A stretch of 64,000 bases of DNA from the sequence record PP400787. One strand, 5' to 3'. The translations under genes and the position numbers were made by a program. The notes beneath the pieces are model-generated. The model did no database searches. It was not told where the DNA came from and worked only from the letters and a program-made list of their open reading frames with translations. The DNA is from Escherichia phage FL23. Below are positions 46,868 to 61,607 of this stretch, in pieces. Each line of letters opens with the position of its first letter. Positions within the stretch are counted from its first letter, which is position 1.

Positions 46868-46891
46868 TGCTTCAGTTTCATGTGTTATAAT
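46866..46891 (+). promoter_or_regulatory. Middle-mode promoter for gene 1
   Basis: MotA-box-like aaTGCTTCA (46866-46874) and TATAAT (46886-46891). Confidence 0.5.
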
Positions 46892-46916
46892 CTTAACTAA
46901 ATTTGAGGAGAAACAT

Positions 46917-47641
46917 ATGAAACTAATCTTTTTAAGCGGTGTAAAGCGTAGTGGAAAAGATACTACTGCTGATTTTATCATGAGCAATTATTCTGCAGTT
47001 AAATACCAACTTGCTGGTCCTATTAAGGATGCATTGGCTTATGCATGGGGAGTATTTGCAGCAAATACCGACTATCCTTGCTTAACTCGTAAAGAGTTTG
47101 AAGGAATTGACTATGATCGTGAGACTAATTTAAATCTAACTAAATTAGAAGTAATCACGATTATGGAACAAGCATTTTGCTATCTTAATGGTAAAAGCCC
47201 AATTAAAGGTGTGTTTGTTTTTGATGACGAAGGACAAGAATCAGTTAATTCCGTAGCATTTAACAAGATTATTGACGTTATAAATAATATTGAAGATCAA
47301 TGGTCAGTCCGTCGTCTGATGCAAGCCCTAGGTACGGATTTGATTGTTAATAACTTCGACCGCATGTACTGGGTAAAATTATTTGCTTTAGATTATCTTG
47401 ATAAATTTAACTCAGGTTATGATTATTATATCGTTCCTGATACTCGTCAAGATCATGAAATGGATGCGGCTAGGGCGATGGGTGCTACAGTAATTCATGT
47501 AGTTCGTCCTGGTCAAAAATCCAATGATACACATATTACAGAAGCTGGATTGCCAATTCGTGATGGCGATTTAGTAATTACAAACGATGGTTCTCTTGAA
47601 GAACTTTTTTCTAAAATTAAAAATACACTAAAGGTACTATA

Positions 47642-47642
<1 letters not shown>
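46917..47642 (+). CDS. 1: dNMP kinase (gp1-like)
   Basis: 241-aa ORF, same length as T4 gp1; P-loop-like GVKRSGKDT. Confidence 0.8.
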
Positions 47643-48339
<697 letters not shown>

Positions 48340-48340
48340 T

Positions 48341-48390
48341 TTCACAAAGTTGTTTACATACTGATGAGGTAGTGATACTATTACCTCATC
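48341..48390 (+). promoter_or_regulatory. Early promoter with embedded stem-loop (PeSL-like) upstream of the 85-aa CTS gene
   Basis: tttcacaaagtTGTTTACA, 17-nt spacer, TACTAT (48376-48381); 9-bp inverted repeat gatgaggta/tacctcatc (48363-48371 / 48382-48390) around the -10. Confidence 0.65.
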
Positions 48391-48412
48391 AAAATTAATT
48401 AGGAAAATAAAA

Positions 48413-48670
48413 ATGAAAACTTTCAAAGAGTTTGCTACAAAAACTACTATCACTGAATCTTCCCACGGTATGGAAGTAAAGCTTGGAATGGCTTTAGCTG
48501 AAGCTGAGCGTCTTTTCTCTCGTATTAAAGAACTTGCTGCTGCGGTCGATCCTTCATCTTTTAAAGGAGACCAAACTAAAGTTAAAGCACTTTTAGCATT
48601 ATGCTCCGATGCAGGAGAAATTGCTAAAAATGGCTCTAAGATGAAGAAACGATTAGAAGATTTAAAATAA
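48413..48670 (+). CDS. Internal-protein-like capsid-targeted protein (CTS MKTFKEFATK...)
   Basis: 85-aa ORF with N-terminal CTS-like motif; paralogous to ORF 56353-56634 (shared EIAKNGSxMKxRLE). Confidence 0.6.
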   Translation: MKTFKEFATKTTITESSHGMEVKLGMALAEAERLFSRIKELAAAVDPSSFKGDQTKVKALLALCSDAGEIAKNGSKMKKRLEDLK

Positions 48671-48720
48671 TTTCACAAAGTTGTTTACATAGGGTTTTAG
48701 TTGTGATACTATTACCCTAT
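48671..48720 (+). promoter_or_regulatory. Early promoter with embedded stem-loop (PeSL-like)
   Basis: tttcacaaagtTGTTTACA, spacer, TACTAT (48707-48712); inverted repeat atagggt/accctat (48689-48695 / 48714-48720). Confidence 0.65.
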
Positions 48721-48746
48721 CAAAACAAAACCAAATGGAAATCAAA

Positions 48747-48980
48747 ATGAAAACTTACCAAGAATTTATTGCTGAAACTGCTGATGTAAAAGTTGAGTTT
48801 ATTTACACTGGCAAGAAAGATAAAATGGGTGAAATGCCTCATGGAGTTCTTCGTGATGCATTAGATAATTTCGGTCAACTCGCCGCAGAAGATTACGGTG
48901 ATAAAATTGTTGTTACTGGTCCTGCTGCAGTTATTGAAAAATGGGCAGCAGAAAATAAATCAATTTTTCGTAAAAAATAA
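48747..48980 (+). CDS. Internal-protein-like capsid-targeted protein (CTS MKTYQEFIAE...)
   Basis: 77 aa from the second in-frame ATG (48747), which gives the canonical MKTYQEFIAE start; position after 57B corresponds to the ipI locus. Confidence 0.6.
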   Translation: MKTYQEFIAETADVKVEFIYTGKKDKMGEMPHGVLRDALDNFGQLAAEDYGDKIVVTGPAAVIEKWAAENKSIFRKK

Positions 48981-49020
48981 GTTTACTTTTAGATAGGGTA
49001 GTGATACTATTACCCTATCT
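48981..49020 (+). promoter_or_regulatory. Early promoter with embedded stem-loop (PeSL-like)
   Basis: GTTTACT, spacer, TACTAT (49005-49010); perfect 10-bp inverted repeat agatagggta/taccctatct (48991-49000 / 49011-49020). Confidence 0.65.
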
Positions 49021-49038
49021 ACTACTGAGGAGAATAAA

Positions 49039-49224
49039 ATGAAACGTTGTGAATTAATTCGAAATGTTGCTATTGCAATTTCTGCTTCCGCTTTTAGTTT
49101 TTCAATGTTTGTTGGATTTATATGTGGATTATTGACTACAGCAGAAAATGTGTTTTCACTTGTAGTAGCATTTTTAATTGGTTTAATTGCTATTGTTATG
49201 GATAAAATTTCTAAAGGTGAATAA
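49039..49224 (+). CDS. Small hydrophobic membrane protein (61 aa)
   Basis: ATG with SD gaggag; two predicted TM segments. Confidence 0.5.
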   Translation: MKRCELIRNVAIAISASAFSFSMFVGFICGLLTTAENVFSLVVAFLIGLIAIVMDKISKGE

Positions 49225-49622
49225 TGAACGTTGAATATTATGTATATGCGGATTACGAAAATAATCCGTCTAAAGATGAAGATAATCGTTTAGGTGTAGA
49301 TGCTTTCGATTCCCCTGCGGCGGCATGGCAATGGGTTGAAAGAACCGATATTCCTTACCGTTATATTGAAGTGGTTGACCACGCAGGAAACAAGTATCCT
49401 AAGGAAGCATATGTTGCTTCCGGGAAGGTAAATTTCCTTTTGTTTGCAGGTGATAATTATTATCCCCGTGGTGGGTATACCGATTTAATTGCTAAAGCAT
49501 TCTCTGAAGATGAACTCCGTGACATTATCAAAGAAAATGAAAACAAACCGATGGATTCTAATCGCTTTGATTGGTGGCAAATCGTAAATGCTAATACTCA
49601 CACTATTGTTGATGAAGGCTGA
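49224..49622 (+). CDS. Hypothetical protein (132 aa)
   Basis: ORF with ATGA coupling to upstream gene. Confidence 0.5.
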   Translation: MNVEYYVYADYENNPSKDEDNRLGVDAFDSPAAAWQWVERTDIPYRYIEVVDHAGNKYPKEAYVASGKVNFLLFAGDNYYPRGGYTDLIAKAFSEDELRDIIKENENKPMDSNRFDWWQIVNANTHTIVDEG

Positions 49623-49624
49623 TA

Positions 49625-49912
49625 ATGATTCTTTATGCGAAAGTATCATCCATTGAAAATGGATATAAATATGATCAAGACGCGGCTAAAGCTTTGATTG
49701 ATGATTATGGCATTTTAACATGTTTTGAAGTTGAAAAGGTTTACATTGACCGTTCATCTTCTCAAGTTAAATTAGTGAAGGAAGAACGTAAATTTAATAC
49801 AGTAAATTTTGATTTCTTTATTGAAACAGAAAAAGGTCCTCTTGAATATGATATTTTCAAGAATCCTTTGGGTCTTGAATGCATCGTAAATATGTATTAT
49901 TATAAATGGTAA
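49625..49912 (+). CDS. Hypothetical protein (95 aa)
   Basis: Tightly packed ORF, ATG verified. Confidence 0.5.
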   Translation: MILYAKVSSIENGYKYDQDAAKALIDDYGILTCFEVEKVYIDRSSSQVKLVKEERKFNTVNFDFFIETEKGPLEYDIFKNPLGLECIVNMYYYKW

Positions 49913-49913
49913 A

Positions 49914-49940
49914 TATGCTTTAAGAATTATTTGTTATTAT
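49914..49940 (+). promoter_or_regulatory. Putative middle-mode promoter upstream of the tRNA cluster
   Basis: MotA-box-like atTGCTTTA (49914-49922) and TATTAT (49935-49940). Confidence 0.4.
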
Positions 49941-50009
49941 TAACTCATATCGCACTGATTAATACCCTCTATCATCAAGGGTTCTTGCTTAAGAGCCTTT
50001 GTTAATAAT

Positions 50010-50082
50010 TGGGAATTAGCCAAGTTGGTAAGGCACTGGATTTTGATTCCAGGATGCAAAGGTTCGAGTCCTTTATTCCCAG
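50010..50082 (+). tRNA. tRNA-Gln (anticodon UUG)
   Basis: Manual cloverleaf: acceptor tgggaat/attccca, anticodon loop ttttgat, T-arm ggttcgagtcc. Confidence 0.85.
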
Positions 50083-50083
50083 C

Positions 50084-50170
50084 GCGAGAATGGCCAAATT
50101 GGTAAAGGCACAGCACTTAAAATGCTGCGGAATGATTTCCTTGTGGGTTCGAGTCCCACTTCTCGTACCA
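50084..50170 (+). tRNA. tRNA-Leu (anticodon UAA), CCA encoded
   Basis: Acceptor gcgagaa/ttctcgt, long variable arm, T-arm gggttcgagtccc, 3' CCA. Confidence 0.85.
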
Positions 50171-50176
50171 AAGTTT

Positions 50177-50248
<72 letters not shown>

Positions 50249-50260
50249 AAATTTAATTTA

Positions 50261-50334
50261 CTCCGTGTAGCTCAGTTTGGTAGAGCGCCTGATTTGGGAT
50301 CAGGAGGTCCAAGGTTCAAATCCTTGTATGGAGA
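50261..50334 (+). tRNA. tRNA-Pro (anticodon UGG)
   Basis: Acceptor ctccgtg/tatggag (two G-U pairs), anticodon loop tttggga, T-arm caaggttcaaatccttg. Confidence 0.8.
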
Positions 50335-50336
50335 TT

Positions 50337-50423
50337 GGAGGCGTGGCAGAGTGGTTTAATGCACCGGTCTTGAAAACCGGCAGTCGCTCCGGCGACTCAT
50401 AGGTTCAAATCCTATCGCCTCCG
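50337..50423 (+). tRNA. tRNA-Ser (anticodon UGA)
   Basis: Acceptor ggaggcg/cgcctcc, anticodon loop cttgaaa, long variable arm, T-arm aggttcaaatcct. Confidence 0.85.
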
Positions 50424-50430
50424 TAATTTC

Positions 50431-50503
50431 GCTGATTTAGCTCAGTAGGTAGAGCACCTCACTTGTAATGAGGACGTCGGCGGTTCGATTCCGTCAATCA
50501 GCA
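50431..50503 (+). tRNA. tRNA-Thr (anticodon UGU)
   Basis: Acceptor gctgatt/aatcagc, anticodon loop cttgtaa, T-arm cggttcgattccg. Confidence 0.85.
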
Positions 50504-50509
50504 TATCAA

Positions 50510-50581
50510 GGCCCTGTAGCTGGAAGGTTCAAGCAAGCGACTCATAATCGCCAGATGGTGGTTCAATTCCACCCAGGGCCA
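50510..50581 (+). tRNA. tRNA with CAU anticodon (Ile by analogy with T4, where CAU is lysidine-modified; Met not excluded)
   Basis: Acceptor ggccctg/cagggcc, anticodon loop ctcataa, T-arm ggttcaattcc. Confidence 0.75.
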
Positions 50582-50622
50582 TATTTTGAGAACATAAATA
50601 CTCTTAGAAATAGGAGATATTT

Positions 50623-51288
50623 ATGTTCCATTACATTTATAAAATAACAAATAAAATTAATAATAAAATCTATATAGGCGCTCATTCTACCGAAAATTTA
50701 GATGATGGATATATGGGTTCTGGTAAATTATTAAAAAGAGCCCAAGATAAGTATGGTATAGAAAATTTTTCTAAAGAAATATTAGAGTTCTTTGACGATA
50801 AAACCTCTATGTTTGAGTCAGAAAAGAATATTGTGACTGAAGAGTTTTTAAAGCACCCTGATGTTTATAATTTGAAATTAGGTGGTGAAGGTGGTTGGGA
50901 CCATTTAAACACTAAAGAATATTTGGATAAAAAGAAAGAAGCTTCCTTAAAAGGAGCTGCCGCTTTTAAAACCAGATTTGAGAACGACCCAGACCTTAAA
51001 GAAAAATATCGTAAAATGGGTTCAGAAAGGTTTAAACAGCTTTGGGATAATCCTAAGTATAGAGAGAAATTTTTAAATACTAAATCTTTCTTGGGTAAGA
51101 CCCATACTCCTGAAACTATTAATAAAATGAAAGAATCTCACGCTAAAAATAATCACCAGAAAGGTGAAAAGAATTCCCAATTTGGTATGATGTGGATTCA
51201 TTCATTAGATGAAAAAGTTTCTAAACGTATTAAGAAAACTGACCCAATTCCAGAAGGATGGTTTAAAGGTCGAAAAATGAAATTTTAA
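50623..51288 (+). CDS. segB: GIY-YIG homing endonuclease (SegB-like) inserted in the tRNA cluster
   Basis: 221-aa ORF with GIY-YIG motifs (HYIYKITNK...KIYIGAH) and C-terminal IPEGWFKGR tail; located between the CAU tRNA and tRNA-Arg. Confidence 0.8.
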   Translation: MFHYIYKITNKINNKIYIGAHSTENLDDGYMGSGKLLKRAQDKYGIENFSKEILEFFDDKTSMFESEKNIVTEEFLKHPDVYNLKLGGEGGWDHLNTKEYLDKKKEASLKGAAAFKTRFENDPDLKEKYRKMGSERFKQLWDNPKYREKFLNTKSFLGKTHTPETINKMKESHAKNNHQKGEKNSQFGMMWIHSLDEKVSKRIKKTDPIPEGWFKGRKMKF

Positions 51289-51291
51289 CTA

Positions 51292-51367
51292 CGAGGCATA
51301 GCTCAGAAGGAAGAGCAAGGACCTTCTAAGTCCTGGGTCGTAGGTTCGATCCCTACTGCCTCGACCA
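51292..51367 (+). tRNA. tRNA-Arg (anticodon UCU), CCA encoded
   Basis: Acceptor cgaggca/tgcctcg, anticodon stem aggac/gtcct with loop cttctaa, T-arm gtaggttcgatccctac, 3' CCA. Confidence 0.8.
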
Positions 51368-51711
51368 GACAAGAAGCCGGGTCGCTACCGGCAAGTCGTC
51401 GGACTGATGTTCCCTGTTTAAGGACTGGCATTAACAAATCTTTACGATCTGCTAATGCCCCCTTATATCACAGCAGAAACGGCGCACCGAATTATCGATT
51501 CGAGGAAATATCTTTGCCATAAGCCGAGTAGCGTTTTTGACGGAACGTTCGGATATGGTCGAGATATGGCCTTTTAAAAATATTGAGTAGCGTCAACTGC
51601 TTAATAACCGGGTTCGAATCCCGGCGTTTCGTACAAACACTTGCCTTAGCAGGTGGAACCCCGACAAGGTTGCCGCAAGGCTTAGCCCCGACCGAAAGGT
51701 TGGGGCTTTTT
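51368..51711 (+). ncRNA. Small stable RNA region downstream of tRNA-Arg (T4 species-1/species-2-like), includes a tRNA-like element and the operon terminator
   Basis: GC-rich structured sequence without credible coding potential; acceptor-like stem cggaacg/cgtttcg with canonical T-arm ccgggttcgaatcccgg (51541-51632); terminator ccccgacc-gaaa-ggttgggg + T-run (51685-51711). Confidence 0.45.
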
Positions 51712-51801
51712 AGTTTGAATCACTCGGATAACGCTGTTACGGATAGTAACAAAGTAATAAATAATTAATAACCAACCGATAAATTATTTCAAGGATTTTA
51801 A

Positions 51802-52365
51802 ATGAAAACCTATGCCGAATTTTTAACCGAAGCAGCAAAATTACCATCTGAAGCAGATCTTACTAAAGTATTCTTCCAATTGGACCCAAAAGACCGCGGC
51901 GATTTTCTTAAGTGGAAAGCTAAAGCTATTGAAATGTACAACATCGATAATAGTTCTTTTACAATGAGTCAAGAAAATAAATTCAATAAAGCATTTTTCA
52001 AAATTTCTAAGAAATTGGCATCTGGCGCTCAGGTTCCTAAATCTGTGTTAGCTACTCCTGAACGCGCACCTGTTAAAATTTCTAAGAATATGTTCGACAC
52101 TAAAAAATACGTTAATGCTTTGAATAAAGCTCTTGATGCATTGGATGATGCAAAGAAGGCAGCCCGCGATCTTCAAGACGTGTACACCGATTTTGACCGC
52201 AAAACTAAAGGTTCTATTTCAAATAGCGAACGCAATAGTGTAAGTGTTTATTCTGATAGCCTTGATGTTCTTGGCGATGCGTATACTGAAATTAAAAATC
52301 GTATTAACACTGCATCTAAGCTAAAAGCTGCTGCAGAAGCTATAATAAGTAAACTAGGTAAATAA
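51802..52365 (+). CDS. Internal-protein-like capsid-targeted protein (CTS MKTYAEFLTE...; IPIII-like size)
   Basis: 187-aa ORF with SD aagga and N-terminal CTS-like motif. Confidence 0.6.
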   Translation: MKTYAEFLTEAAKLPSEADLTKVFFQLDPKDRGDFLKWKAKAIEMYNIDNSSFTMSQENKFNKAFFKISKKLASGAQVPKSVLATPERAPVKISKNMFDTKKYVNALNKALDALDDAKKAARDLQDVYTDFDRKTKGSISNSERNSVSVYSDSLDVLGDAYTEIKNRINTASKLKAAAEAIISKLGK

Positions 52366-52373
52366 TTTTAAAT

Positions 52374-52398
52374 CCCTATCTAAATGATAGGGCTTTTT
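52374..52398 (+). terminator. Intrinsic terminator downstream of the 187-aa CTS gene
   Basis: ccctatc-taaat-gataggg hairpin followed by CTTTTT. Confidence 0.6.
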
Positions 52399-52510
52399 GG
52401 TATCTAGGCCTTTCTGGACCTCTCTAGGCATCATTTAGTTTATACCCTTTATAATATATTATCCTATCCTTTAATTGCCCATCCCTGCCCTAGAATTCCC
52501 TAAAAATTTT

Positions 52511-52551
52511 TTCACAAAACTGTTTACATCTCTGTTCTTCCATGGTACTAT
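52511..52551 (+). promoter_or_regulatory. Early promoter
   Basis: ttcacaaaacTGTTTACA, 17-nt spacer, TACTAT (52546-52551). Confidence 0.6.
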
Positions 52552-52594
52552 ACAACTATCAACTACTGATACAGAAAACAACTTGGAGAATGAA

Positions 52595-52858
52595 ATGGAT
52601 AATTACGGCGAACTGTTCAACTTCTTTATGAAATGCGTTTCAGAAGATTTCGGTCGTACAGTGAATGATATTAAAGTTATCGGTCCTGACCATCCGATGT
52701 TTGAAACTTACGCAGTAATGGGTAATGAAGACGGTCAGTGGTATACTGTAAAAGTTGTGATTAATATGTTCACAGCAGAAGGTTATGTTAAACTGTCTTC
52801 TAAAGTTTACCATGATAACGACGAAATCGCAGAAGAATATTTCAATAATATGAAATAA
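52595..52858 (+). CDS. Hypothetical protein (87 aa)
   Basis: ATG 52595 with SD ggag 6 nt upstream (track ORF extends upstream through the promoter). Confidence 0.5.
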   Translation: MDNYGELFNFFMKCVSEDFGRTVNDIKVIGPDHPMFETYAVMGNEDGQWYTVKVVINMFTAEGYVKLSSKVYHDNDEIAEEYFNNMK

Positions 52859-52894
52859 GTTTACGCAGGCTCATGATTGAGATATTATGAGCCT
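52859..52894 (+). promoter_or_regulatory. Early promoter with embedded stem-loop (PeSL-like)
   Basis: GTTTACG, 17-nt spacer, TATTAT (52883-52888); inverted repeat aggctcat/atgagcct (52867-52874 / 52887-52894). Confidence 0.55.
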
Positions 52895-52959
52895 ATAATT
52901 TGACGATAGAGTATTATACTCCTACGGATTTTAAATCTCAATTAACCTAAGGAAATACT

Positions 52960-53553
52960 ATGAACACACTGAAGAAAATTGTTGAGTTTATTCGCACTAA
53001 ACTTGGTTCTGCTATGGCTAAAAATCTATCTGTCGAAGAACAGTATACTGCTGCAGCAGCAAAACTACTTGATAAAATTAAAGATCTAAAAACTGCTTCT
53101 GTTAAATCTATTAACGAAGAAAAACGTATTCGTGAACTTGTTATCGAAAAGAATCGACAGGCCGAATCAAAAGAGCGTGAAATTCGTAAACTTCTTTCCG
53201 AAGGCCAAGATGTAACAATGCATGCTAAACTCGGTTTACTATATCGTCGAACAGCTGAGCAGTTGACTACTAAGGCTGACGGTTATGCTGAAATGCGAAT
53301 TGAAATCGCCAAGAAAGTAGTTGAGTTAGATGATGCTCGTCAAGAACTTGCGGTTAAATTGGAATATATCCGTGAAACTCGTGCAGCGAATGCCCTTGGA
53401 ATTAGTACTGCTGATGATGTAGTTGAAATTGCAGCACTGACTAAGGTTGATATTGAAGATACTCTTGCTCGAGTTGAAACCTTTAATGGTAATATTTCTG
53501 GGGTTGAAACTACCTCTGCCGATGTTCAGGAATATATTAATTCTCTGAAATAA
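52960..53553 (+). CDS. Hypothetical coiled-coil protein (197 aa)
   Basis: ORF with SD aagga; heptad-rich sequence. Confidence 0.5.
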
Positions 53554-53559
53554 TGATAA

Positions 53560-53574
53560 GGGGCTTCGGGCCCC
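53560..53574 (+). terminator. Hairpin downstream of the 197-aa ORF, possible terminator
   Basis: ggggc-ttcgg-gcccc stem-loop followed by a moderately T-rich stretch. Confidence 0.4.
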
Positions 53575-53595
53575 TATTACTTGGAGTAAATAGGA

Positions 53596-54204
53596 ATGAA
53601 AATGCAAAGTGATTTCAATTCAATGTTTGAAGAGTTTCAAAGACAGGTTGATGTTCCAGACCAATTACTAAATGCTCTTAAACGCATGGCAGAAGGACGT
53701 AATTACTATTGGGGGTCTTCATATGAAACTGATGAAAGCCTTTCCGGAAGATTTTCTAGAGGTAAAAAGTCTTTAATACGTCCTGGAATACTCATTAACA
53801 GTATTGAATCAATTCATTCATTGACGTGTGATTTTGATGTTGAATTTACTGATTTCATTTCTCCTGAATGGACGGTTTGTTATTTAAACGACGATTTTGA
53901 TTATCTCGGTGTTTATAGTTTAAGTGACGCATGGTTTAAACGTAATTTACAAAAGTCAAATTTATTTTATATTGATACTACTGTAAAATTTCAGGGCAAG
54001 AAATATTTCTTTACTCTTATAGTTGATTCTGAAACGAAGCATGAAAATAAACGTATTCTTAGTAAAAAGAATATCTTAACTATTGTTGATGATCTTTTTG
54101 ATAAATTTGTAGAAAATCCCAATTTTGAAAGTGATTTATTACTAGAAAAATTTGTTAAGGAATGTAGAGAATATGTCAAAGCCATCACTATACCTTCCAA
54201 GTAA
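53596..54204 (+). CDS. Hypothetical protein (202 aa) ending in the FVKECR junction motif
   Basis: ORF with SD ggag/aggaa; C-terminal ...EKFVKECREYV. Confidence 0.5.
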   Translation: MKMQSDFNSMFEEFQRQVDVPDQLLNALKRMAEGRNYYWGSSYETDESLSGRFSRGKKSLIRPGILINSIESIHSLTCDFDVEFTDFISPEWTVCYLNDDFDYLGVYSLSDAWFKRNLQKSNLFYIDTTVKFQGKKYFFTLIVDSETKHENKRILSKKNILTIVDDLFDKFVENPNFESDLLLEKFVKECREYVKAITIPSK

Positions 54205-54565
54205 ACCGTTGAAGTATGAATTAAAGCGTCAGATAATTTCTACTGATGTGTTAATAGGTCCTGTTATACTCATATCATTTGTAATTCTATTGATTATTGG
54301 AGGTGTTTTAGATGTTATGACTGATATTGATTCTGGCGAAATACTTGTGTTAATGCTAATTCTTCCATTAATAGTTCCACTTTTATTAGTACCCGTAAAT
54401 TGGGTAGGATACTGGTATCAAGGAAGGCATTATCGTAAACGCGTACGTGATTGGAAAGCACAGTGTAAAAAGATTAAAAAGGAACATCAGCTTAAACTTG
54501 CTGCGTATGAATTTGATGAAATTATGAAATTTGTTAAGGAATCACGATGCAAAAGCCAAAACTAA
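54173..54565 (+). CDS. Small membrane protein, paralog family member 1
   Basis: 130 aa from ATG 54173; two hydrophobic TM segments; C-terminus ...MKFVKESRCKSQN. Confidence 0.5.
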   Translation: MSKPSLYLPSKPLKYELKRQIISTDVLIGPVILISFVILLIIGGVLDVMTDIDSGEILVLMLILPLIVPLLLVPVNWVGYWYQGRHYRKRVRDWKAQCKKIKKEHQLKLAAYEFDEIMKFVKESRCKSQN

Positions 54566-54909
54566 ATAAAGTCAAATATTCGTTTTCTGAGTCATTTTTA
54601 ATTTTTGCTGTGGCGTTGGCTGCAGCTCTTGCAGGTAGTCTTTTTGGATTGTTAATTGACTGTCTTATTTTAAACATCGACGGCACAGTAAATATAACAG
54701 AAGTTTGGAGTGAGCTTTGTTATACTAAAATTATTTCATTGTTTTCATTCTTTGGTTCCATGTTATATTTTCATTATGATAATTTTAAAATAAATTGGCA
54801 AAGAAAAAAAGATTACAAAATACAATTAAAAGAATATAATAGCTACATGTCTTATATTGAAAATGAGTCAATGAAAGAGTTTGTGAGTGATTGTAGGAAA
54901 ATTAAATGA
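54547..54909 (+). CDS. Small membrane protein, paralog family member 2
   Basis: 120-aa ORF; TM segments; C-terminus ...KEFVSDCRKIK. Confidence 0.5.
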   Translation: MQKPKLNKVKYSFSESFLIFAVALAAALAGSLFGLLIDCLILNIDGTVNITEVWSELCYTKIISLFSFFGSMLYFHYDNFKINWQRKKDYKIQLKEYNSYMSYIENESMKEFVSDCRKIK

Positions 54910-55394
54910 TTTTAAAAACTCGCTGGTATGATTTAGATGATGGGGACGATGGCATTTCAGTTGATAGAGTTGACTGGAATGGTTGTTCCGAAGATATGAA
55001 AAATTTGTTGATTAGGGAGTTTAGAATGGGATATCAAGCAGCTAAGCCATTTACTGTAACAGATGATAAGTTCGTATGTATTCAAAACGGTCGCGCTAAG
55101 TTAACGAATGCTGATTGGTTCACAGATAAGAAGGTTCTTCTGTGGTATATCATTAGTCTTCCTATATCATCGTTCGTATTTTACTTTTTTATAAAAAATC
55201 CAATGGACAGAATAGGAGATTGGGTTCTTTTAACTATACTTGTTAATATTTTTACAGCAGCAGTATTATCAGGAATATGGCGTATGTTCATTGAAATGCC
55301 ATGGCGTTTACGCAGACAACAAAAGATTTTTGATGAAAAGAAATATACTCAAAATTTAAATAACTTTATCACTGAATGCAGGAAATTAAAATGA
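54906..55394 (+). CDS. Small membrane protein, paralog family member 3
   Basis: 162-aa ORF; TM segments; C-terminus ...NFITECRKLK; ATGA coupling on both sides. Confidence 0.5.
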   Translation: MILKTRWYDLDDGDDGISVDRVDWNGCSEDMKNLLIREFRMGYQAAKPFTVTDDKFVCIQNGRAKLTNADWFTDKKVLLWYIISLPISSFVFYFFIKNPMDRIGDWVLLTILVNIFTAAVLSGIWRMFIEMPWRLRRQQKIFDEKKYTQNLNNFITECRKLK

Positions 55395-55831
55395 AAACAC
55401 TATCAGCTGGTATTATCTTTATGACAGAAGATAAAGATTTATTTATGGGTCGGGTTACTGGTTCTCGTAAGCCTGGAATGATGGCACATCGCTGGGATAT
55501 TCCAAAGGGCCGCGTAGAAAGTTCTGATTTGAATGCACTGGAAGCTGCAAAAAGAGAATGCTTAGAAGAGACCGGTTTTAGCAATTATAATCCAGACCTT
55601 CTAGAAGACCTAGGTGTATTTAAATATTCTAGTAATAAAGACTTACAGTTATTTTATTATACGATTCCAGTAGAGCATGAGATGTTTAGAAATTGCCATT
55701 GCGAGTCTTATTTTGAAAATAAAGATGGCGTTATGATTCCAGAGATGGATGCTTTTGCTCTTATTCCTCGTACTCAGTGGCAATATGTGATGGGTCCTTC
55801 ACTTTACCGAATAATGAACAACCTCTTTTAA
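55391..55831 (+). CDS. nudE: Nudix hydrolase (NudE-like)
   Basis: Nudix box GRVESSDLNALEAAKRECLEETGF; start set at ATG 55391 (ATGA overlap with upstream stop, SD aggaaa) rather than the track's 55376. Confidence 0.75.
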   Translation: MKTLSAGIIFMTEDKDLFMGRVTGSRKPGMMAHRWDIPKGRVESSDLNALEAAKRECLEETGFSNYNPDLLEDLGVFKYSSNKDLQLFYYTIPVEHEMFRNCHCESYFENKDGVMIPEMDAFALIPRTQWQYVMGPSLYRIMNNLF

Positions 55832-56634
<803 letters not shown>

Positions 56635-56635
56635 T

Positions 56636-56689
56636 GTTTACTTCCTCCAAGGGTTTTGATACTATACATTCATCAACTACTTGGAGGAA
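56636..56689 (+). promoter_or_regulatory. Early promoter with SD-sequestering stem-loop (PeSL-like)
   Basis: GTTTACT, 17-nt spacer, TACTAT (56660-56665); 10-bp inverted repeat 56642-56651 / 56680-56689 whose 3' arm contains SD GGAGG. Confidence 0.6.
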
Positions 56690-56692
56690 ATT

Positions 56693-56795
56693 ATGACCCG
56701 TCCGAAGCGTCCATTGCGATAAGTCAAGCACGCTTAGATAAAAAATTGCTCAACGCCCGACTTGGTACAAATACTTTGGTAAATCAATTTACTAA
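56693..56795 (+). pseudogene. denV: denV (endonuclease V / pyrimidine-dimer glycosylase) relic: start codon context plus about 30 C-terminal codons, frameshifted
   Basis: ATG-ACC-CGT (MTR) then out of frame; frame A reads [12 protein letters not shown], frame B (after A6 run 56740-56745) reads [16 protein letters not shown], matching my recollection of T4 DenV C-terminus (...[32 protein letters not shown]); about 105 internal codons are absent. Confidence 0.6.
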
Positions 56796-56801
56796 GGAAA
56801 A

Positions 56802-56987
56802 ATGAAAATGTATCAAGAATTTATCGTTGAAGCAGATGCCAAAGGTCCTAAATTTAAAGTTAAAGCTTTCATTGGTGATGCGGAAGACTTTGGCTCATTA
56901 AAACGTAATGGGTATTCTTTCTTAGGTGGCGATGGTAAAGAAATCAAAACACCTATGCAAAACGTAGTGAAATTGCTTATGTTGTAG
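56802..56987 (+). CDS. Internal-protein-like capsid-targeted protein (CTS MKMYQEFIVE...), possibly truncated by frameshift
   Basis: 61-aa ORF with SD aagga; a second open frame 56939-57064 continues with protein-like sequence. Confidence 0.5.
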   Translation: MKMYQEFIVEADAKGPKFKVKAFIGDAEDFGSLKRNGYSFLGGDGKEIKTPMQNVVKLLML

Positions 56988-57067
56988 CAAGTCCTAAAGT
57001 AGATGTTGACGATATTGGATATGATTTTAACAACTTCGGAATTATTTCTGGCGGTAAAGCTTAAACG

Positions 57068-57097
57068 GTTTACGCTTAAGTATTAATATGGTATAAT
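57068..57097 (+). promoter_or_regulatory. Early promoter
   Basis: GTTTACG, 17-nt spacer, TATAAT (57092-57097). Confidence 0.6.
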
Positions 57098-57125
57098 TAC
57101 TCTATCAAAACAAACAAGGAAACAT

Positions 57126-57428
57126 ATGAAAACGTATAAAGAATTTATTACTGAAGCGCGAGTGAGTGCAGGTAAATTATATGCCGCTATAAATAAAAAG
57201 GCCCATTCATTTCATGATTTGTCCGATAAAGACCGTAAGAAACTTGTAAGCCTTTATATTGACAAAGAGCGTATTCTCGCTCTTCCTGGCGCTAATGAAG
57301 GTAAACAGGCAAAGCCTTTGAATGCTGTTGAAAAGAAAATTGATAACTTTGCTTCTAAATTCGGTATGTCTATGGATGACCTTCAGCAAGCGGCTATCGA
57401 AGCAGCTAAAGTAATTAAAGGTAAATAA
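57126..57428 (+). CDS. Internal-protein-like capsid-targeted protein (CTS MKTYKEFITE...; IPII-like size)
   Basis: 100-aa ORF with SD aagga and CTS-like N-terminus. Confidence 0.6.
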   Translation: MKTYKEFITEARVSAGKLYAAINKKAHSFHDLSDKDRKKLVSLYIDKERILALPGANEGKQAKPLNAVEKKIDNFASKFGMSMDDLQQAAIEAAKVIKGK

Positions 57429-57430
57429 CA

Positions 57431-57460
57431 GTTTACTTTCTCCTAGAATTGTGATAGTAT
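57431..57460 (+). promoter_or_regulatory. Early promoter
   Basis: GTTTACT immediately after the stop of the previous gene, 17-nt spacer, TAGTAT (57455-57460). Confidence 0.5.
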
Positions 57461-57541
57461 ATTCATAATTACTTGGAGGGGTAAATACAGAAATGGACAA
57501 TTCATGCGCCACGGAATGGCCCAACATAAAAGAGAAACTAA

Positions 57542-58093
57542 ATGAGAACATTTTTAACTGGACCTTATCTATCCCTGATGAATGCTTTTACACACCATTC
57601 TGATGCTAGAGTAGAAGAAATTTGTAAGAACGGTTATGTCCCACCATTTGAAGATGTACTCAAGCAGTACTGTACACTTCGTTTAGACGGCGGCAGACAA
57701 TCAGGTAAATCAATTGCTGTGACTAACTTCGCTGCTAATTGGTTGTATGATGGCGGAACTGTTATTGTTCTTTCTAATACTTCAGCTTATGCTAAAATTT
57801 CTGCTAAAATTTCTGCTGGCAACATTAAAAAAGAATTTTCTCGTTATTCTAGCGATGATATTCGATTCCGTTTATTTACTGATTCTGTTCGTAGTTTTAT
57901 TGGCAATGAAGGTTCTAAATTCCGTGGATTAACGCTTTCTCGTATTCTGTACATAATTGACGAGCCTATTAAAGCTCCTGATATGGATAAGATTTACAAT
58001 GTCCATATTAAAACAGTCCAACACTGTTGCAAAAGCAAATATTGCATCGGCGGTAATGCTCGTCCTCAATTTTTTGTGATTGGAATGCAATGA
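57542..58093 (+). CDS. Small P-loop NTPase-like protein (183 aa)
   Basis: Walker A-like GGRQSGKS and Walker B-like ILYIIDE. Confidence 0.5.
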   Translation: MRTFLTGPYLSLMNAFTHHSDARVEEICKNGYVPPFEDVLKQYCTLRLDGGRQSGKSIAVTNFAANWLYDGGTVIVLSNTSAYAKISAKISAGNIKKEFSRYSSDDIRFRLFTDSVRSFIGNEGSKFRGLTLSRILYIIDEPIKAPDMDKIYNVHIKTVQHCCKSKYCIGGNARPQFFVIGMQ

Positions 58094-58398
58094 TGACCAC
58101 TATTGAAGTTTTTGAATATTGTTATAACAGCCCAGTATGCAATAAAAGGGCTCTTGTAGAAAATTACGAGATTTACCATTTTAAACCTAAACGATATCGT
58201 TTGACTAAAGGTCCGTTCGCAGGGCAGCAGGTTCTTTGTACTGCTCCTAATGCACGGTTAATGACTAGTATTCCGCATTTCAAAATGGAATTTATTGATG
58301 GGCCATTTAAGGGATTAATCACTCAAAGTTTAATGGCGTTTAATTCCGACCCATTTTTGATTAAAGAAAAAACTTGGATAAATTTATTTTCTAATTGA
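58090..58398 (+). CDS. Hypothetical protein (102 aa)
   Basis: ORF with ATGA coupling to upstream gene. Confidence 0.5.
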
Positions 58399-58405
58399 GG
58401 TTATT

Positions 58406-58768
58406 ATGAAAGCATATCAAATTCTTGAAGGTGCACATAAAGGCACTATTTATTTTGAAGACGGTACTCAAGCCCGGATTATTGTCTCTAAGACTTTTAA
58501 AGAAGACGCTATTGTAGACCCGGAAATTTTCTACGGTTTGCATGCCCGTGAAATTGAAATTGAACATCAACCTAAAGTTAAAATTGAAGGTGGTCAACAT
58601 CTGAACGTTAACGTTCTGCGTCGTGAAACTCTGGAAGATGCAGTTAAGCATCCGGAAAAATATCCGCAGCTGACCATCCGTGTATCCGGTTATGCAGTTC
58701 GCTTTAACTCTCTGACTCCGGAACAGCAGCGCGACGTTATCGCTCGTACCTTTACCGAGAGTCTATAA
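58406..58768 (+). CDS. Autonomous glycyl-radical cofactor-like protein (GrcA/YfiD-like; T4 Y06I-like)
   Basis: C-terminal 60 residues (...[60 protein letters not shown]) carry the glycyl-radical motif RVSGY; SD gagg. Confidence 0.75.
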
Positions 58769-58989
58769 TGGCTAAATTGATTATAGAAGGGTCTGAAGAT
58801 GTTTTAAAATGTTTTGCCGCCTGGTTTAGTTGCTCAGGCGAGCAATCATTCACTGAAGCATTTAGAATGGGTGATATTACTGGAAACTATCCGACAACTG
58901 ATATCACTGTACGTGGATATGGTATTAATGAACCTATTCGTTTAGTTGAATACGATTTATGTACTGGTGAGGAAGTCAAATATGATTGA
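58768..58989 (+). CDS. Hypothetical protein (73 aa)
   Basis: ORF coupled (TAATG) to upstream gene. Confidence 0.45.
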   Translation: MAKLIIEGSEDVLKCFAAWFSCSGEQSFTEAFRMGDITGNYPTTDITVRGYGINEPIRLVEYDLCTGEEVKYD

Positions 58990-59248
58990 AGATATTAAGG
59001 GTTATAAACCACATACTGAAGAGAAAATAGGTAAAGTAAATGCTATTAAAGACGCTGAAGTTCGTTTAGGACTTATCTTTGACGCTTTATACGATGAATT
59101 TTGGGAAGCATTTGATAGCTGTGAAGATGATGAACTCGCGAAGAATTACGCCGAAAGCCTCGATCAGTTAACTATTGCTAAAACGAAACTCAAAGAAGCT
59201 AGTATGTGGGCTTGTCGTGCTGTGTTCCAACCAGAGGAAAAATATTAA
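58982..59248 (+). CDS. Hypothetical protein (88 aa)
   Basis: Verified ATG 58982 overlapping upstream stop. Confidence 0.45.
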
Positions 59249-59526
59249 TGGCTCAATTAAGCGCAGGGTTTGGTTATGAGTATTATACTGTCCCTCGTCG
59301 TGTATCTATTGCTCCTAAGAAAATTCAAAGTCTTGATGATTTCCAGGAAGTAGTCCGTAAAGCTTTCCAGGACTATGCACGTTATCTTAAAGAAGATTCA
59401 CAGGACTGCCTCGAAGAAGATGAAATTGCTTACTATGAGCAACGTCTTGAACAGCTTAAAAACTTACATGAGGTTCGTGCAGAAGTTACAAAGTCTATGA
59501 ATAAATTGATTAGATTTAAAGAATAA
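59248..59526 (+). CDS. Hypothetical protein (92 aa)
   Basis: Verified ATG 59248 (TAATG overlap). Confidence 0.45.
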
Positions 59527-59528
59527 CT

Positions 59529-59581
59529 GTTTACTTTTCCTCTTGACTGTGGTATAATTTTTCTATCAGTTAAGAGGAGAA
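59529..59581 (+). promoter_or_regulatory. Early promoter with SD-sequestering stem-loop (PeSL-like) for regB
   Basis: GTTTACT, 17-nt spacer, TATAAT (59553-59558); 10-bp stem ttttcctctt (59535-59544) with aagaggagaa (59572-59581, contains SD). Confidence 0.65.
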
Positions 59582-59585
59582 TAAC

Positions 59586-60047
59586 ATGACTATCAATACA
59601 GAAGTTTTTATCCGTAGAAATAAGCTTCGTCGTCACTTTGAGTCGGAGTTTCGTCAAATTAACAATGAGATTCGTGAGGCATCAAAAGCAGCAGGGGTCT
59701 CATCGTTTCATCTAAAATATTCTCAGCATCTTCTTGATCGTGCAATTCAACGGGAGATTGATGAGACATATGTTTTTGAATTATTCCACAAAATAAAAGA
59801 CCATGTTTTAGAAGTTAATGAATTCCTGAGTATGCCTCCGCGTCCTGACATTGATGAGGATTTTATTGATGGGGTTGAATACCGTCCTGGACGTTTAGAA
59901 ATCACAGATGGAAATCTTTGGCTTGGATTTACAGTTTGTAAACCTAATGCAAAGTTCAAAGACCCGTCACTTCAATGTAGGATGGCAATTATTAACAGTC
60001 GTCGTTTACCAGGAAAGGCTTCTAAAGCAGTAATTAAAACTCAATGA
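59586..60047 (+). CDS. regB: RegB site-specific endoribonuclease
   Basis: 153-aa ORF, same length as T4 RegB; position upstream of vs/tk. Confidence 0.75.
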   Translation: MTINTEVFIRRNKLRRHFESEFRQINNEIREASKAAGVSSFHLKYSQHLLDRAIQREIDETYVFELFHKIKDHVLEVNEFLSMPPRPDIDEDFIDGVEYRPGRLEITDGNLWLGFTVCKPNAKFKDPSLQCRMAIINSRRLPGKASKAVIKTQ

Positions 60048-60054
60048 GGTAAGC

Positions 60055-60600
60055 ATGAGAAAAGCACTACTCGCTGGTCTATTGGCCATTTCAATGATGG
60101 CACATAGCTCCGAGCATACTTTCAGTAATGTCCAACTCGATAACATGCGTTACGCGTATCAATTCGGGGAACAATTTTCTAAGGATGGAAAATATAAAAC
60201 ACACAAAAACATCCATAAGAGCGGATTGGGTCATATAATGGCTGCTATTTTGTGGCAAGAAAGCTCTGCCGGAGTTAATTTAAAATCTAAACCAAAGCAT
60301 CATGCCTATGGAATGTTCCAAAATTATTTGCCTACTATGCGAGCAAGAGTTAAGGAACTTGGTTATAATATGACCGATGCTGAAATAAAAAGAATGTTGA
60401 ATAAACGGTCCAATTCAGCTTCCTGGGCGTACATTGAACTTTCTTATTGGTTAAATATACATAAGGGCGATATAAGAAAGGCGATATCCTCTTATAATTC
60501 GGGATGGAATGTTAAAGCAGGTTCTAAATATGCTTCTGAAGTCCTAGAAAAGGCTAATTACCTTAAAAATAATAAACTTTTGGAAATAGTAAATGACTAA
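60055..60600 (+). CDS. Secreted protein with lytic-transglycosylase-like motif (vs.1 position)
   Basis: 181-aa ORF with N-terminal signal peptide (MRKALLAGLLAISMMAHS) and WQESS motif. Confidence 0.5.
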   Translation: MRKALLAGLLAISMMAHSSEHTFSNVQLDNMRYAYQFGEQFSKDGKYKTHKNIHKSGLGHIMAAILWQESSAGVNLKSKPKHHAYGMFQNYLPTMRARVKELGYNMTDAEIKRMLNKRSNSASWAYIELSYWLNIHKGDIRKAISSYNSGWNVKAGSKYASEVLEKANYLKNNKLLEIVND

Positions 60601-60934
60601 AATTTTGGTTTTATGTATAGGATTAATTTCATTTTCTGTGTTAGCAGATACATCATATACTGAAATTAGAGAGTATGTAAACCGTACTGCCGCGGATTAT
60701 TGTGGGAAAAATAAAGCATGCCAAGCTGAATTTGCGCAGAAATTAATATATGCATACAAAGACGGAGAAAGAGATAAATCAAGCAGATATAAAAATGATA
60801 CATTGTTAAAACGATATGCTAAAAAGTGGAATACTTTAGAATGTTCAGTTGCGGAGGAGAAAGATAAAGCCGCTTGTCATTCAATGGTTGACCGTTTAGT
60901 AGATTCTTATAATCGAGGATTGAGTACTAGATGA
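60593..60934 (+). CDS. Small secreted Cys-containing protein (vs position)
   Basis: 113-aa ORF with signal peptide and 4 Cys; symbol not assigned because only synteny supports it. Confidence 0.45.
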   Translation: MTKILVLCIGLISFSVLADTSYTEIREYVNRTAADYCGKNKACQAEFAQKLIYAYKDGERDKSSRYKNDTLLKRYAKKWNTLECSVAEEKDKAACHSMVDRLVDSYNRGLSTR

Positions 60935-61398: not shown

Positions 61399-61607
61399 AA
61401 GTACATTACCCGCATCCGTTTGATCCTAAAAACAAAGTGGAAATTATTCGTCAATGGGAACGCATTTGCCGTACTAAATGTCCAATTAATAGTCCGCATG
61501 ATGTAGATAAAGACTACATTGGAACATTCGTTGAATATACCTTTATTGATAAGAAAGGTCGTAAACAGCATGTAGAAGAATACTGCTTAAAGGTTACATG
61601 GTTATGA
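61380..61607 (+). CDS. Hypothetical protein (75 aa)
   Basis: ORF in tightly packed tk-proximal array. Confidence 0.45.
   Translation: MGTIIMKVHYPHPFDPKNKVEIIRQWERICRTKCPINSPHDVDKDYIGTFVEYTFIDKKGRKQHVEEYCLKVTWL

Follow-up and report, generated by a model that had tools for sequence, protein, structure and literature searches.

What are the short, nearly identical sequences that separate the small genes of this T4-type phage, and do they mark the places at which those genes are exchanged? The window (the whole stretch of 64,000 nucleotides analysed here) is 100% identical to Escherichia phage FL44 (Tequatrovirus) and corresponds to the segment between gene 57B and regB on the T4 map. [quoted passage not shown] Our analysis finds that the elements are real and were correctly recognized, and that they are ordinary, previously described T4-like early promoters, many with an overlapping RNA hairpin. 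Where they stand between small accessory genes they represent many, though not all, of the sites at which related phages have swapped genes. We regard it as probable that the locus as a whole is explained by three things together: T4-type early promoters, hairpins formed between promoter spacer and leader, and exchange of cassettes at these modules.

Early promoters of the window

The exact pattern GTTTACW-N17-TAYWAT has 7 matches in the window against 0.05 expected, and the relaxed pattern GTTTAC-N18-TAnnnT has 10 against 0.74, a number reached by none of 100 shuffles. All relaxed matches lie on the + strand at 48.3-63.7 kb, and the same scan finds no match in the first 48 kb. At least ten copies had been predicted between 48341 and 59581; that count holds for the window, while the interval itself contains nine, the tenth lying beyond it at 63735 (Table 1). 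The copies had also been placed immediately after stop codons, and eight of the nine indeed begin 0-13 nt past one, but P52522 begins 156 nt past.

The ten matches conform to the established early-promoter consensus, in which GTTTAC occupies roughly -36 to -31, the spacer measured from TTTACN is 17 nt long, and the -10, TAnnnT, is often preceded by TGn (Nolan 2006; Hinton 2010). TG precedes the -10 in six of them, A+T makes up 76-88% of the 25 upstream nucleotides in seven elements and 60-64% in the other three, and all ten have a Shine-Dalgarno (SD) sequence with ATG downstream, 16-65 nt from the inferred start. Near-identical sequences occupy the corresponding T4 sites upstream of ipI, trna.4, e.8, e.7, an ipIII-type gene and regB, and the fPS-90 record annotates six of these promoters as predicted early promoters. 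From this orthology to T4 promoters we infer promoter activity; the start sites and the read-through transcription considered below are putative. The motif would thus be the standard T4-type early promoter, with a UP-like A/T tract, the GTTTAC -35, often TGn, and the TAnnnT -10, which host sigma-70 RNA polymerase would read right upon infection; each copy, set in the short gap past one small gene, would drive the gene that follows.

Table 1. Early promoters, promoter-associated hairpins and variable cargo (folding energies in kcal/mol; z against dinucleotide shuffles)
Feature	Coordinates	Strand	Energy	z	Remarks
Early promoter P1 (-35 GTTTAC to -10 TACTAT)	48352..48381	+	-17.4	-3.9	upstream of IPa
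P1 hairpin	48362-48391	+			class A, -10 in loop
ipI-locus cargo	48413..48980	+			IPa 48413-48670, IPb 48735-48980; phrog_3499, phrog_8111
Early promoter P2	48683..48712	+	-18.4	-3.6	upstream of IPb
P2 hairpin arms	48689-48695 / 48714-48720	+			class A, register shifted
Early promoter P3	48981..49010	+	-19.8	-3.8	upstream of trna.4 homologue; abuts stop codon
P3 hairpin	48990-49021	+			class A
Early promoter P52522	52522..52551	+		-0.1	upstream of e.8 homologue; no overlapping hairpin
Early promoter P52859	52859..52888	+	-18.8	-3.9	abuts e.8 stop codon
P52859 hairpin	52867-52894	+			class A
Second IP locus	56353..57428	+			IPc 56353-56634; denV relic 56692-~56800; truncated IP gene 56802-56987; ipII homologue 57126-57428
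Early promoter P56636	56636..56665	+	-19.1	-3.0	upstream of denV relic
P56636 hairpin	56642-56689	+			class B; TTCCTCCAAG paired with CTTGGAGGAA (Shine-Dalgarno)
Early promoter P57068	57068..57097	+		+0.3	upstream of ipII homologue; no hairpin
Early promoter P57431 with hairpin	57431..57486	+	-20.3	-3.9	promoter 57431-57460; class B, reaching GGAGGGG Shine-Dalgarno
regB early promoter P59529 with hairpin	59529..59581	+	-23.1	-5.2	promoter 59529-59558; class B hairpin 59535-59581
Terminator, then early promoter P63735	63702..63764	+			hairpin + T-run 63702-63719; promoter 63735-63764; beyond the interval first delimited

Many promoter spacers are complementary to their leaders

When 70-nt segments were folded as RNA and compared with 200 dinucleotide shuffles each, seven of the ten promoters (48352, 48683, 48981, 52859, 56636, 57431 and 59529) showed a significant overlapping hairpin (z <= -3), with energies between -17.4 and -23.1 kcal/mol and z-scores between -3.0 and -5.2; such folds gave none at 52522, 57068 and 63735. 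All six inverted repeats listed originally are therefore real, and a seventh, at 57431, had been missed. The six had been said to span the spacer and the -10; the repeats fall into two geometries rather than one. In class A (48352, 48683, 48981, 52859) the arms lie on either side of the -10, spacer against +1 region, and leave the -10 in the loop. The class B hairpins (56636, 57431, 59529) have their 5' arm behind the -35, upstream of the inferred start site, and their 3' arm, which lies 30-40 nt downstream, is formed by the following gene's Shine-Dalgarno sequence. The arm sequences differ between elements.

This pairing extends beyond the window. Among 125 non-redundant T4-type promoters with their leaders, taken from IMG/VR, from seven relatives and from the window itself, a spacer-leader duplex of <= -10 kcal/mol is formed by 42%, as against 10% of pairs in which spacers were permuted among leaders with position-specific composition kept. 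At <= -14 kcal/mol the figures are 22% and 0.7% (Mann-Whitney p = 6e-10), and at -16 kcal/mol 19% and 0.27%. The 53 duplexes at <= -10 kcal/mol divide into 34 of class A and 19 of class B, and in-register class A pairing of at least 9/10 occurs in 8 of 85 cases, compared with 0 of 85 in slid controls and a permuted mean of 0.57. Parts of the +1 region (TACCCTATCA) are conserved and TAGGGTA recurs in some spacers, so that the complementarity might be imagined to have arisen by chance, from an AT-rich genome and a consensus shared at promoter and +1. This is hardly conceivable in view of the permuted and slid controls and of the dinucleotide-shuffle z-scores of -3 to -5, which refute it.

The interior non-Watson-Crick pairs indicate the molecule on which selection acts. 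In the collapsed set there are 20 G·T/T·G against 3 A·C/C·A pairs (p = 5e-4), and in the uncollapsed set 41 against 5; the stems thus accept G·U and not A·C, which places selection on the sense read-through RNA. BF15 moreover carries a compensatory A-T to G-C change at the P52859 hairpin. The repeats might instead act as DNA, by extruding cruciforms or by binding a protein dimer with a role in promoter control or in the initiation of recombination, as their centring on the -10 and the speculation of Arbiol 2010 about a DNA-binding protein recognizing PeSL stems could suggest. We hold this to be very improbable, as the arm sequences are wholly different among elements and neither a cruciform nor a site in double-stranded DNA would be expected to show the strong excess of G·T over A·C. 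Loops of 10-30 nt, as seen here, are also unfavourable for cruciform extrusion.

Possible functions of the hairpins

Selection on sense RNA is compatible with any function that such RNA may have, including the one in the original PeSL view, in which the stem-loops are terminators or attenuators of the upstream gene, compacted onto the next promoter, with the masking of the Shine-Dalgarno sequence being incidental. They do start 0-13 nt past stop codons, and with one phi1 PeSL stem-loop the drop in lacZ expression was about as large as with rrnB T1 (Arbiol 2010). However, no promoter-embedded hairpin is followed by a T-run, so that terminator activity is not predicted, and a terminator scan that detects 51684, 52374 and 63702 picks up none of them; the 3' arm of class B, furthermore, sits 30-40 nt downstream, exactly at the Shine-Dalgarno sequence, a geometry found in 19 of the 53 strong hairpins genus-wide. 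As a whole, the terminator reading appears rather unlikely.

We favour a reading in which the fold depends on where the RNA begins. A transcript from the element's own promoter would lack the 5' arm and form no hairpin, while read-through RNA from upstream would contain both arms and fold. In class B the fold would hide the Shine-Dalgarno sequence, so that translation would proceed mainly from own-promoter transcripts. At regB, where the 3' arm covers the Shine-Dalgarno sequence AAGAGGAG, the predicted probability of its being unpaired is 0.63 in the own transcript and 0.03 in read-through; at P56636 the predicted values are 0.34 and 0.14. The class A hairpins, right behind the upstream stop codon, would most likely serve as attenuators, processing sites or 3'-end stabilizers.

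T4 provides a precedent for class B in genes e, soc, 49 and I-TevI, in whose long upstream transcripts the SD or AUG is held in a helix, and a promoter within the structure yields a shorter, translatable RNA (PMC3014915). Class B has the same geometry, its SD masking being a prediction. In the T4 genes, however, the internal promoter is late (or middle) and delays expression, whereas here it is early, so that the effect would be to confine translation to promoter-proximal, immediate-early transcripts. Class B would accordingly represent the e/soc/49/I-TevI mechanism with opposite timing.

Only tentatively would we extend this to a general 'transcript-origin filter', in which the spacers of about 40% of T4-type early promoters are under selection for pairing, in sense RNA, with the leader of the same promoter, and translation (class B, with an anti-SD in the spacer) or processing (class A) depends on whether the RNA stems from the own promoter or from read-through. 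If so, every shuffled cassette would be autonomous in its expression. In the literature covered we found no description of the geometry, prevalence or G·U strand asymmetry for T-even phages; older T4 work (Liebig and Rüger 1989; Repoila 1994; Miller 2003) may document them.

Proposed cassette exchange at the promoter modules

Breakpoints were mapped by comparing the window with seven relatives, which were picked from the top hits and are not mutually independent. Promoter modules account for 6.7% of the bases but overlap seven of the 17 breakpoint clusters (p = 6e-5); the remaining ten lie at tRNA or homing-endonuclease sites, at repeats resembling terminators, and at ordinary gene boundaries. 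Synteny breakpoints thus map to the elements in part only. Breakpoints occur at 6/9 promoter junctions and at 9/30 other gene junctions, a weak excess (Fisher p = 0.057), and against these relatives none is seen at P52522 or P59529. The hairpin is no predictor of a breakpoint (5/7 elements with it, 1/2 without it).

Homology ends or resumes at 48723, 49001, 57116 and 57461-57479, and the crossovers at 49001, 57116 and 57461-57479 are located past the -10 and ahead of the SD or ATG. Killian, Pu-Krd-SF4, BF15 and T4 contain chimeric elements in which the 5' half of one type is joined to the 3' half of another; the persistence of recombinant elements with broken repeats in the first three shows that the hairpin is dispensable, at least in the short term.

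It is possible, though we do not favour it, that the promoters are not specially recombinogenic and that viable insertions and deletions in a hyperplastic region simply have to hit gene junctions, many of which are occupied by promoters. The modest Fisher value, the ten clusters elsewhere and the two promoters free of breakpoints would all fit. Yet the crossovers map within conserved promoter, leader and CTS sequence and not merely close by, the chimeric elements join halves of different types, and circles joined within PeSLs were recovered by Arbiol 2010. We therefore infer that the coincidence is due to recombination at the modules and not to selection on viable junctions. Promoter, leader and, in internal protein (IP) genes, the capsid-targeting N-terminal codons are conserved between otherwise unrelated cassettes; they would thereby offer short patches of homology to T4's efficient homologous recombination, and cassettes would be gained, lost and exchanged there.

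The individual loci illustrate both the reach and the limits of such exchange. At the ipI locus lie two genes for internal head proteins whose N-termini are of the CTS type; these genes are replaced or absent in T4, Pu-Krd-SF4, PaulHMueller and BF15. P1 is identical in T4, fPS-90 and HP3.1, while its Killian version is chimeric with a broken repeat. The single ipI/trna.4 promoter of T4 consists of the 5' half of P2 and the 3' half of P3, and T4 homology resumes within P3 at 49001, which identifies IPb as a cassette between tandem promoters. At P52859, five of the seven relatives break, and an extra e.7-like gene is found in relatives. In the second IP locus, IPc is a paralogue of IPa (48% identical), and the ipII/denV order is reversed relative to T4; breakpoints at 57116 and 57157 lie downstream of P57068. 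P57431 forms the right border of the variable IP/denV block in 7/7 relatives, with homology resuming at 57479 in 6/7, and a promoter of its type precedes ipIII in T4, denV in fPS-90 and HP3.1, and a vs.8 homologue in the window.

The elements had been thought to delimit exactly the variable cargo, comprising CTS genes, denV relic and regB. This describes the IP cassettes, which are bounded by promoter, leader and CTS modules, and agrees with the breakpoints at 6/9 elements, but it fails for the ten clusters elsewhere and for the other two genes. regB is conserved in 7/7 relatives, behind a near-invariant promoter without a breakpoint. The denV relic arose not by exchange at an element but by an internal 297-nt deletion across a 13-nt microhomology (56689-56701). 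P56636 would now have no more than a 9-codon denV remnant to drive.

Relation to known elements

The closest counterparts are the T-even PeSL-like elements. As cited in Arbiol 2010 (PMC2839356), Repoila 1994 saw 'PeSL-like sequences' at two T-even internal-protein loci, and according to Comeau 2014 (PMC4122927) the PeSL promoters of the T4/PST pair have the consensus TTTACW-N17-TAYWAT. To the extent that these accounts describe them, they belong to the same genus and loci (ipI; ipIII/ipII/denV) and share the core, the AT-rich stem-loops of variable size and the link to IP-gene exchange; we see no essential difference, FL44 being one more genome with a different set of IP cassettes.

With the phi1/RB49 PeSLs (Arbiol 2010) the window elements share an A/T tract that includes the preceding stop codon, a strong early promoter with a stem-loop lying over its -35 and -10 boxes or between them, SD and ATG, clustering in hyperplastic regions, and crossovers (there in mini-circles) between the -10 and the SD/ATG. 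Among the features that define PeSLs, stop-codon and A/T placement, a stem-loop in or near the promoter, SD with ATG, hyperplastic clustering and internal crossovers are found here. Nevertheless, phi1/RB49 elements have a near-perfect sigma-70 TTGACA and stems of G- and C-runs (GGGG...CCCC), whereas ours have GTTTAC and heterogeneous, unrelated AT-rich stems; by -35 and stem comparison they do not belong to that sequence family, in keeping with the view that the T-even elements are its analogs, not homologs (Arbiol 2010, PMC2839356). Terminator activity and mini-circles have been demonstrated for phi1/RB49 only.

In a wider sense, the modules resemble Botstein-Campbell linkers, short conserved sequences between unrelated modules that aim homologous exchange at safe junctions, with the difference that here the linker itself would be a working promoter and leader, plus CTS codons for IP genes. 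In PST, finally, the stems lie just upstream of the promoter (Comeau 2014, figure legend), an arrangement that recurs here at P63735, with its terminator hairpin 16 nt upstream, and loosely at P52522, with a canonical terminator hairpin (52374-52392) 130 nt upstream, while seven stems overlap the promoter.

A known element type in a new genome

What are the repeated promoter modules of this genome? Over 48000-60000 the window is 100% identical to the Tequatrovirus Escherichia phage FL44 (PP400790.1), after which the sequence is called below, and 1097 phage records match. Annotation and comparison with T4 place on the + strand, in the order of the T4 map, genes 3, 1, 57A and 57B, the ipI locus, trna.4 to trna.2, the tRNA cluster with segB, e.8 to e.1 (nudE), e, the second internal-protein locus with denV, the vs genes, regB, vs.1 and vs. 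This is a classic hyperplastic region of an intensively studied genome, and it is transcribed early.

The exact pattern GTTTACW-N17-TAYWAT matches 7 times in the window against 0.05 expected, and the relaxed pattern GTTTAC-N18-TAnnnT 10 times against 0.74; every relaxed-pattern copy is on the + strand, and the first 48 kb are free of them. A scan for generic sigma-70 promoters gave no signal, with 64 sites where 67 are expected; only the T4 early consensus is in excess. The original prediction of a conserved early promoter repeated at least ten times holds for the window, with ten relaxed-pattern matches, but not for its own interval, 48341-59581, which contains nine of them. Its placement of the promoters right after stop codons holds for eight of these nine, which start 0-13 nt downstream of one, but not for P52522 (promoters are named by their start), which is separated from the preceding stop codon by 156 nt. 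In seven elements the A+T content of the 25 nt upstream is 76-88%.

The predicted likeness to promoter-early stem-loop (PeSL) elements is well founded, as both consensus and loci agree with published descriptions. For the pair PST and T4, which show five internal-protein differences, the PeSL promoter consensus is TTTACW-N17-TAYWAT (Comeau 2014, PMC4122927); PeSL-like sequences at the two T-even internal-protein loci have been credited to Repoila 1994 and described as analogs based on T4 early promoters, their stem-loops being weaker and rich in AT (Arbiol 2010, PMC2839356). Moreover, T4 genes e, soc, 49 and I-TevI are textbook cases in which the Shine-Dalgarno sequence (SD) is sequestered in long transcripts, with a promoter inside the hairpin (PMC3014915). 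Given these precedents, the modules are a described element type, correctly recognised in a new genome: real and non-random, but already known. They are no new kind of element; FL44 is one more Tequatrovirus genome with modules long tied to the shuffling of internal-protein genes.

Early promoters, terminators and cargo genes in the window
Feature	Position	Strand	Hairpin class or remark	Basis
Early promoter	48352	+	class A	pattern match
Early promoter	48683	+	class A	pattern match
Early promoter	48981	+	class A	pattern match
Early promoter	52522	+		pattern match
Early promoter	52859	+	class A	pattern match
Early promoter	56636	+	class B	pattern match
Early promoter	57068	+		pattern match
Early promoter	57431	+	class B	pattern match
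Early promoter	59529	+	class B	pattern match
Tenth early promoter	63735	+		pattern match
Canonical terminator	51684-51707			terminator scan
Canonical terminator	52374-52392			terminator scan
Canonical terminator	63702-63719			terminator scan
Internal head protein IPa	48413-48670		phrog_3499, paralogue of IPc (48% identity)	PHROG profiles
Internal virion protein IPb	48735-48980			PHROG profiles
Internal head protein IPc	56353-56634		phrog_3499	PHROG profiles
Truncated internal protein	56802-56987		phrog_2667, early stop 56985-56987	PHROG profiles
Internal virion protein	57126-57428			PHROG profiles
RegB	59586-60047			PHROG profiles

Hairpins of two geometries

RNA folding of 70-nt segments gave significant hairpins at the seven promoters classed in the table (-17.4 to -23.1 kcal/mol, z-scores -3.0 to -5.2) and none at P52522, P57068 or P63735. 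All six promoters originally credited with an inverted repeat do fold, and a seventh, P57431, had been overlooked. In class A the 5' arm lies inside the promoter spacer, the extended -10 forms the loop and the 3' arm spans about -6 to +5; in class B the 5' arm directly follows the -35, and the 3' arm is the SD, 30-40 nt downstream. Class B would be the same device as in T4 e, soc, 49 and I-TevI, but built around an early promoter. As modelled, a transcript from the element's own promoter would lack the 5' arm in both classes, and folding would be possible only in read-through RNA from upstream. At regB the predicted accessibility of the SD is 0.63 when the transcript starts at the gene's own promoter but only 0.03 in read-through RNA; the corresponding values for P56636 are 0.34 and 0.14.

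None of the seven promoter-embedded hairpins is followed by a T-run; what the terminator scan picks up instead are the three canonical terminators of the table. An Rfam scan of 46500-64000 returned the eight tRNAs only, the hairpins matching no known RNA family. The last of the canonical terminators lies 16 nt upstream of P63735, which is the arrangement shown for PST, a 'stem-loop just upstream of the promoter' (Comeau 2014, PMC4122927). The strongest class A case among the relatives is the T4 promoter upstream of ipII (10202-10260 of the T4 sequence, L002, in window orientation), where a perfect 14-15 bp inverted repeat, TCCTAGAATTGTGA ... TCACAATTCTAGGA, holds the -10 in its loop.

Pairing between spacer and leader

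Scanning IMG/VR with GTTTAC-N14-KTGATACTAT yielded 120 loci. Promoter and leader instances from these, from the window and from seven relatives (T4, Killian, fPS-90, Pu-Krd-SF4, PaulHMueller, HP3.1 and BF15) made a sample of 125 once near-identical copies were collapsed. The best spacer-leader RNA duplex reached -10 kcal/mol or lower in 42% of them against 10% in spacer/leader permutations, -14 kcal/mol in 22% against 0.7%, and -16 kcal/mol in 19% against 0.27% (Mann-Whitney p = 6e-10 for observed versus permuted duplexes). The 53 duplexes at or below -10 kcal/mol divide into 34 of class A and 19 of class B. In the fixed class A register, at least 9 of 10 positions pair in 8 of 85 sequences, compared with none in slid registers and a mean of 0.57 in permutations.

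As the arm sequences are unrelated between elements, it is the pairing itself, rather than a sequence motif, that is conserved. BF15 carries a compensatory A-T to G-C change at P52859; the regB hairpin gives no covariation signal among the seven relatives because it is nearly invariant in them. At interior non-Watson-Crick stem positions, G·T/T·G outnumber A·C/C·A by 41 to 5 before collapsing and by 20 to 3 in the collapsed set (p = 5e-4). Since G·U pairs form solely in sense RNA, this excess favours a function in read-through transcripts over a cruciform or a protein site in double-stranded DNA. Spacer-leader pairing is widespread in T4-type early promoters and under selection at the RNA level, often with an SD predicted to be masked, and may merit an experiment in T4. 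Only quantitative points are possibly fresh here, namely the pairing frequency, the strand asymmetry at the RNA level and the subclass with an anti-SD.

Cassette boundaries

Breakpoints were taken from chained blastn alignments of 46500-61500 with the seven relatives, and a promoter module was taken to begin at the preceding stop codon and to include the first 35 nt of the following gene; the BF15 chain skips 52906-57116 and contributed no breakpoints there. Among these relatives, which were picked from best hits and share ancestry, 7 of 17 breakpoint clusters overlap promoter modules, which make up 6.7% of bases (binomial p = 6e-5). Under the stricter null of gene junctions the enrichment is weak, at 6 of 9 promoter-bearing junctions against 9 of 30 others (Fisher p = 0.057).

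In four relatives homology stops at 48433-48447, just past the codons for the capsid-targeting N-terminus (CTS) of IPa. The single ipI/trna.4 promoter of T4 combines P48683 (5' half) and P48981 (3' half), the two overlapping by 21 nt, which makes IPb a cassette between tandem promoters. An extra e.7-like gene sits exactly at P52859 in five of the seven relatives; for the ipII module the breakpoint is 57116 or 57157. At the SD of P57431 (57479) homology resumes in six of seven, BF15 forming one alignment block across this position. The gene behind a promoter of this type differs between phages: it is ipIII in T4, denV in fPS-90 and HP3.1, but the vs.8 homologue in FL44 and BF15. Chimeric elements with 5' and 3' arms of different types, in which pairing is lost, are present in Killian, Pu-Krd-SF4 and BF15. 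The crossovers between -10 and SD/ATG match the positions sequenced in PeSL mini-circles (Arbiol 2010, PMC2839356).

That the elements exactly delimit the variable cargo is only partly right: the other ten clusters lie outside the modules, and neither P52522 nor the regB promoter has a breakpoint relative to the seven relatives, all of which conserve regB. In the blastn chains, the non-module breakpoints fall at the boundaries of the trna.3 gene, at DNA inserted behind trna.2 and, in Killian, at an HNH endonuclease; others reflect variation in segB and the tRNAs, fall where gene e ends, or lie at terminator-like hairpin repeats around a 187-aa gene (51802-52365). Hairpin-bearing elements are not clearly commoner as breakpoints (5 of 7) than hairpin-free ones (1 of 2). 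A four-gamete style test that set spacer types (5') against leader types (3') gave six incompatible sets; this counts for little, since unrelated 3' types group with one another through the +1 consensus. For annotation, the modules are useful in marking transcription units and likely exchange points of accessory cassettes.

Cargo genes and neighbouring features

Internal proteins are injected anti-defence and host-range factors. Each of the two internal-protein loci has a phrog_3499 member; the second copy lacks a promoter of its own, its ATG overlapping the stop codon of the lysozyme gene e. The predicted denV relic is confirmed: 297 nt within denV are missing relative to Pu-Krd-SF4 and PaulHMueller, and the alignment blocks with their intact denV overlap by 13 nt (56689-56701), which indicates a microhomology deletion inside the gene. 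The relic (56689-56800) retains only MTR and out-of-frame C-terminal codons, with promoter and SD intact. Homology of the phrog_2667 gene runs on out of frame past its early stop to about 57062, and 56802-57062 is therefore probably a pseudogene. The T4 order is e, ipIII, ipII, denV, and that of FL44 (56353-57428) is e, IPc, denV relic, truncated internal protein, ipII; ipII and denV have thus swapped relative order.

The 187-aa gene (51681-52392 region; phrog_2280, function unknown) has a CTS-like N-terminus, MKTYAEF, and is missing in T4 and BF15. Its flanks are not promoters but 20-40-nt repeated terminator-like hairpins (GGGGCTTTTT, AGGGCTTTTT), the left of which holds a further insert of ~517 nt in fPS-90, Pu-Krd-SF4 and HP3.1; terminator hairpins may be exchange points too. 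At 57542-58399 the FL44 GenBank record annotates a single 858-nt CDS, probably an annotation error, with an in-frame TGA at 58091-58093; the overlapping ORFs 57542-58093 and 58090-58398 are counterparts of T4 vs.8 and vs.7, and a 36-codon ORF (57493-57603) overlaps the start of the annotated CDS. The eight tRNAs (50010-51364) enclose the segB homing endonuclease gene; tRNA content varies among the relatives, and Killian (L010) has an HNH endonuclease gene at the position of the FL44 tRNA-Gln.
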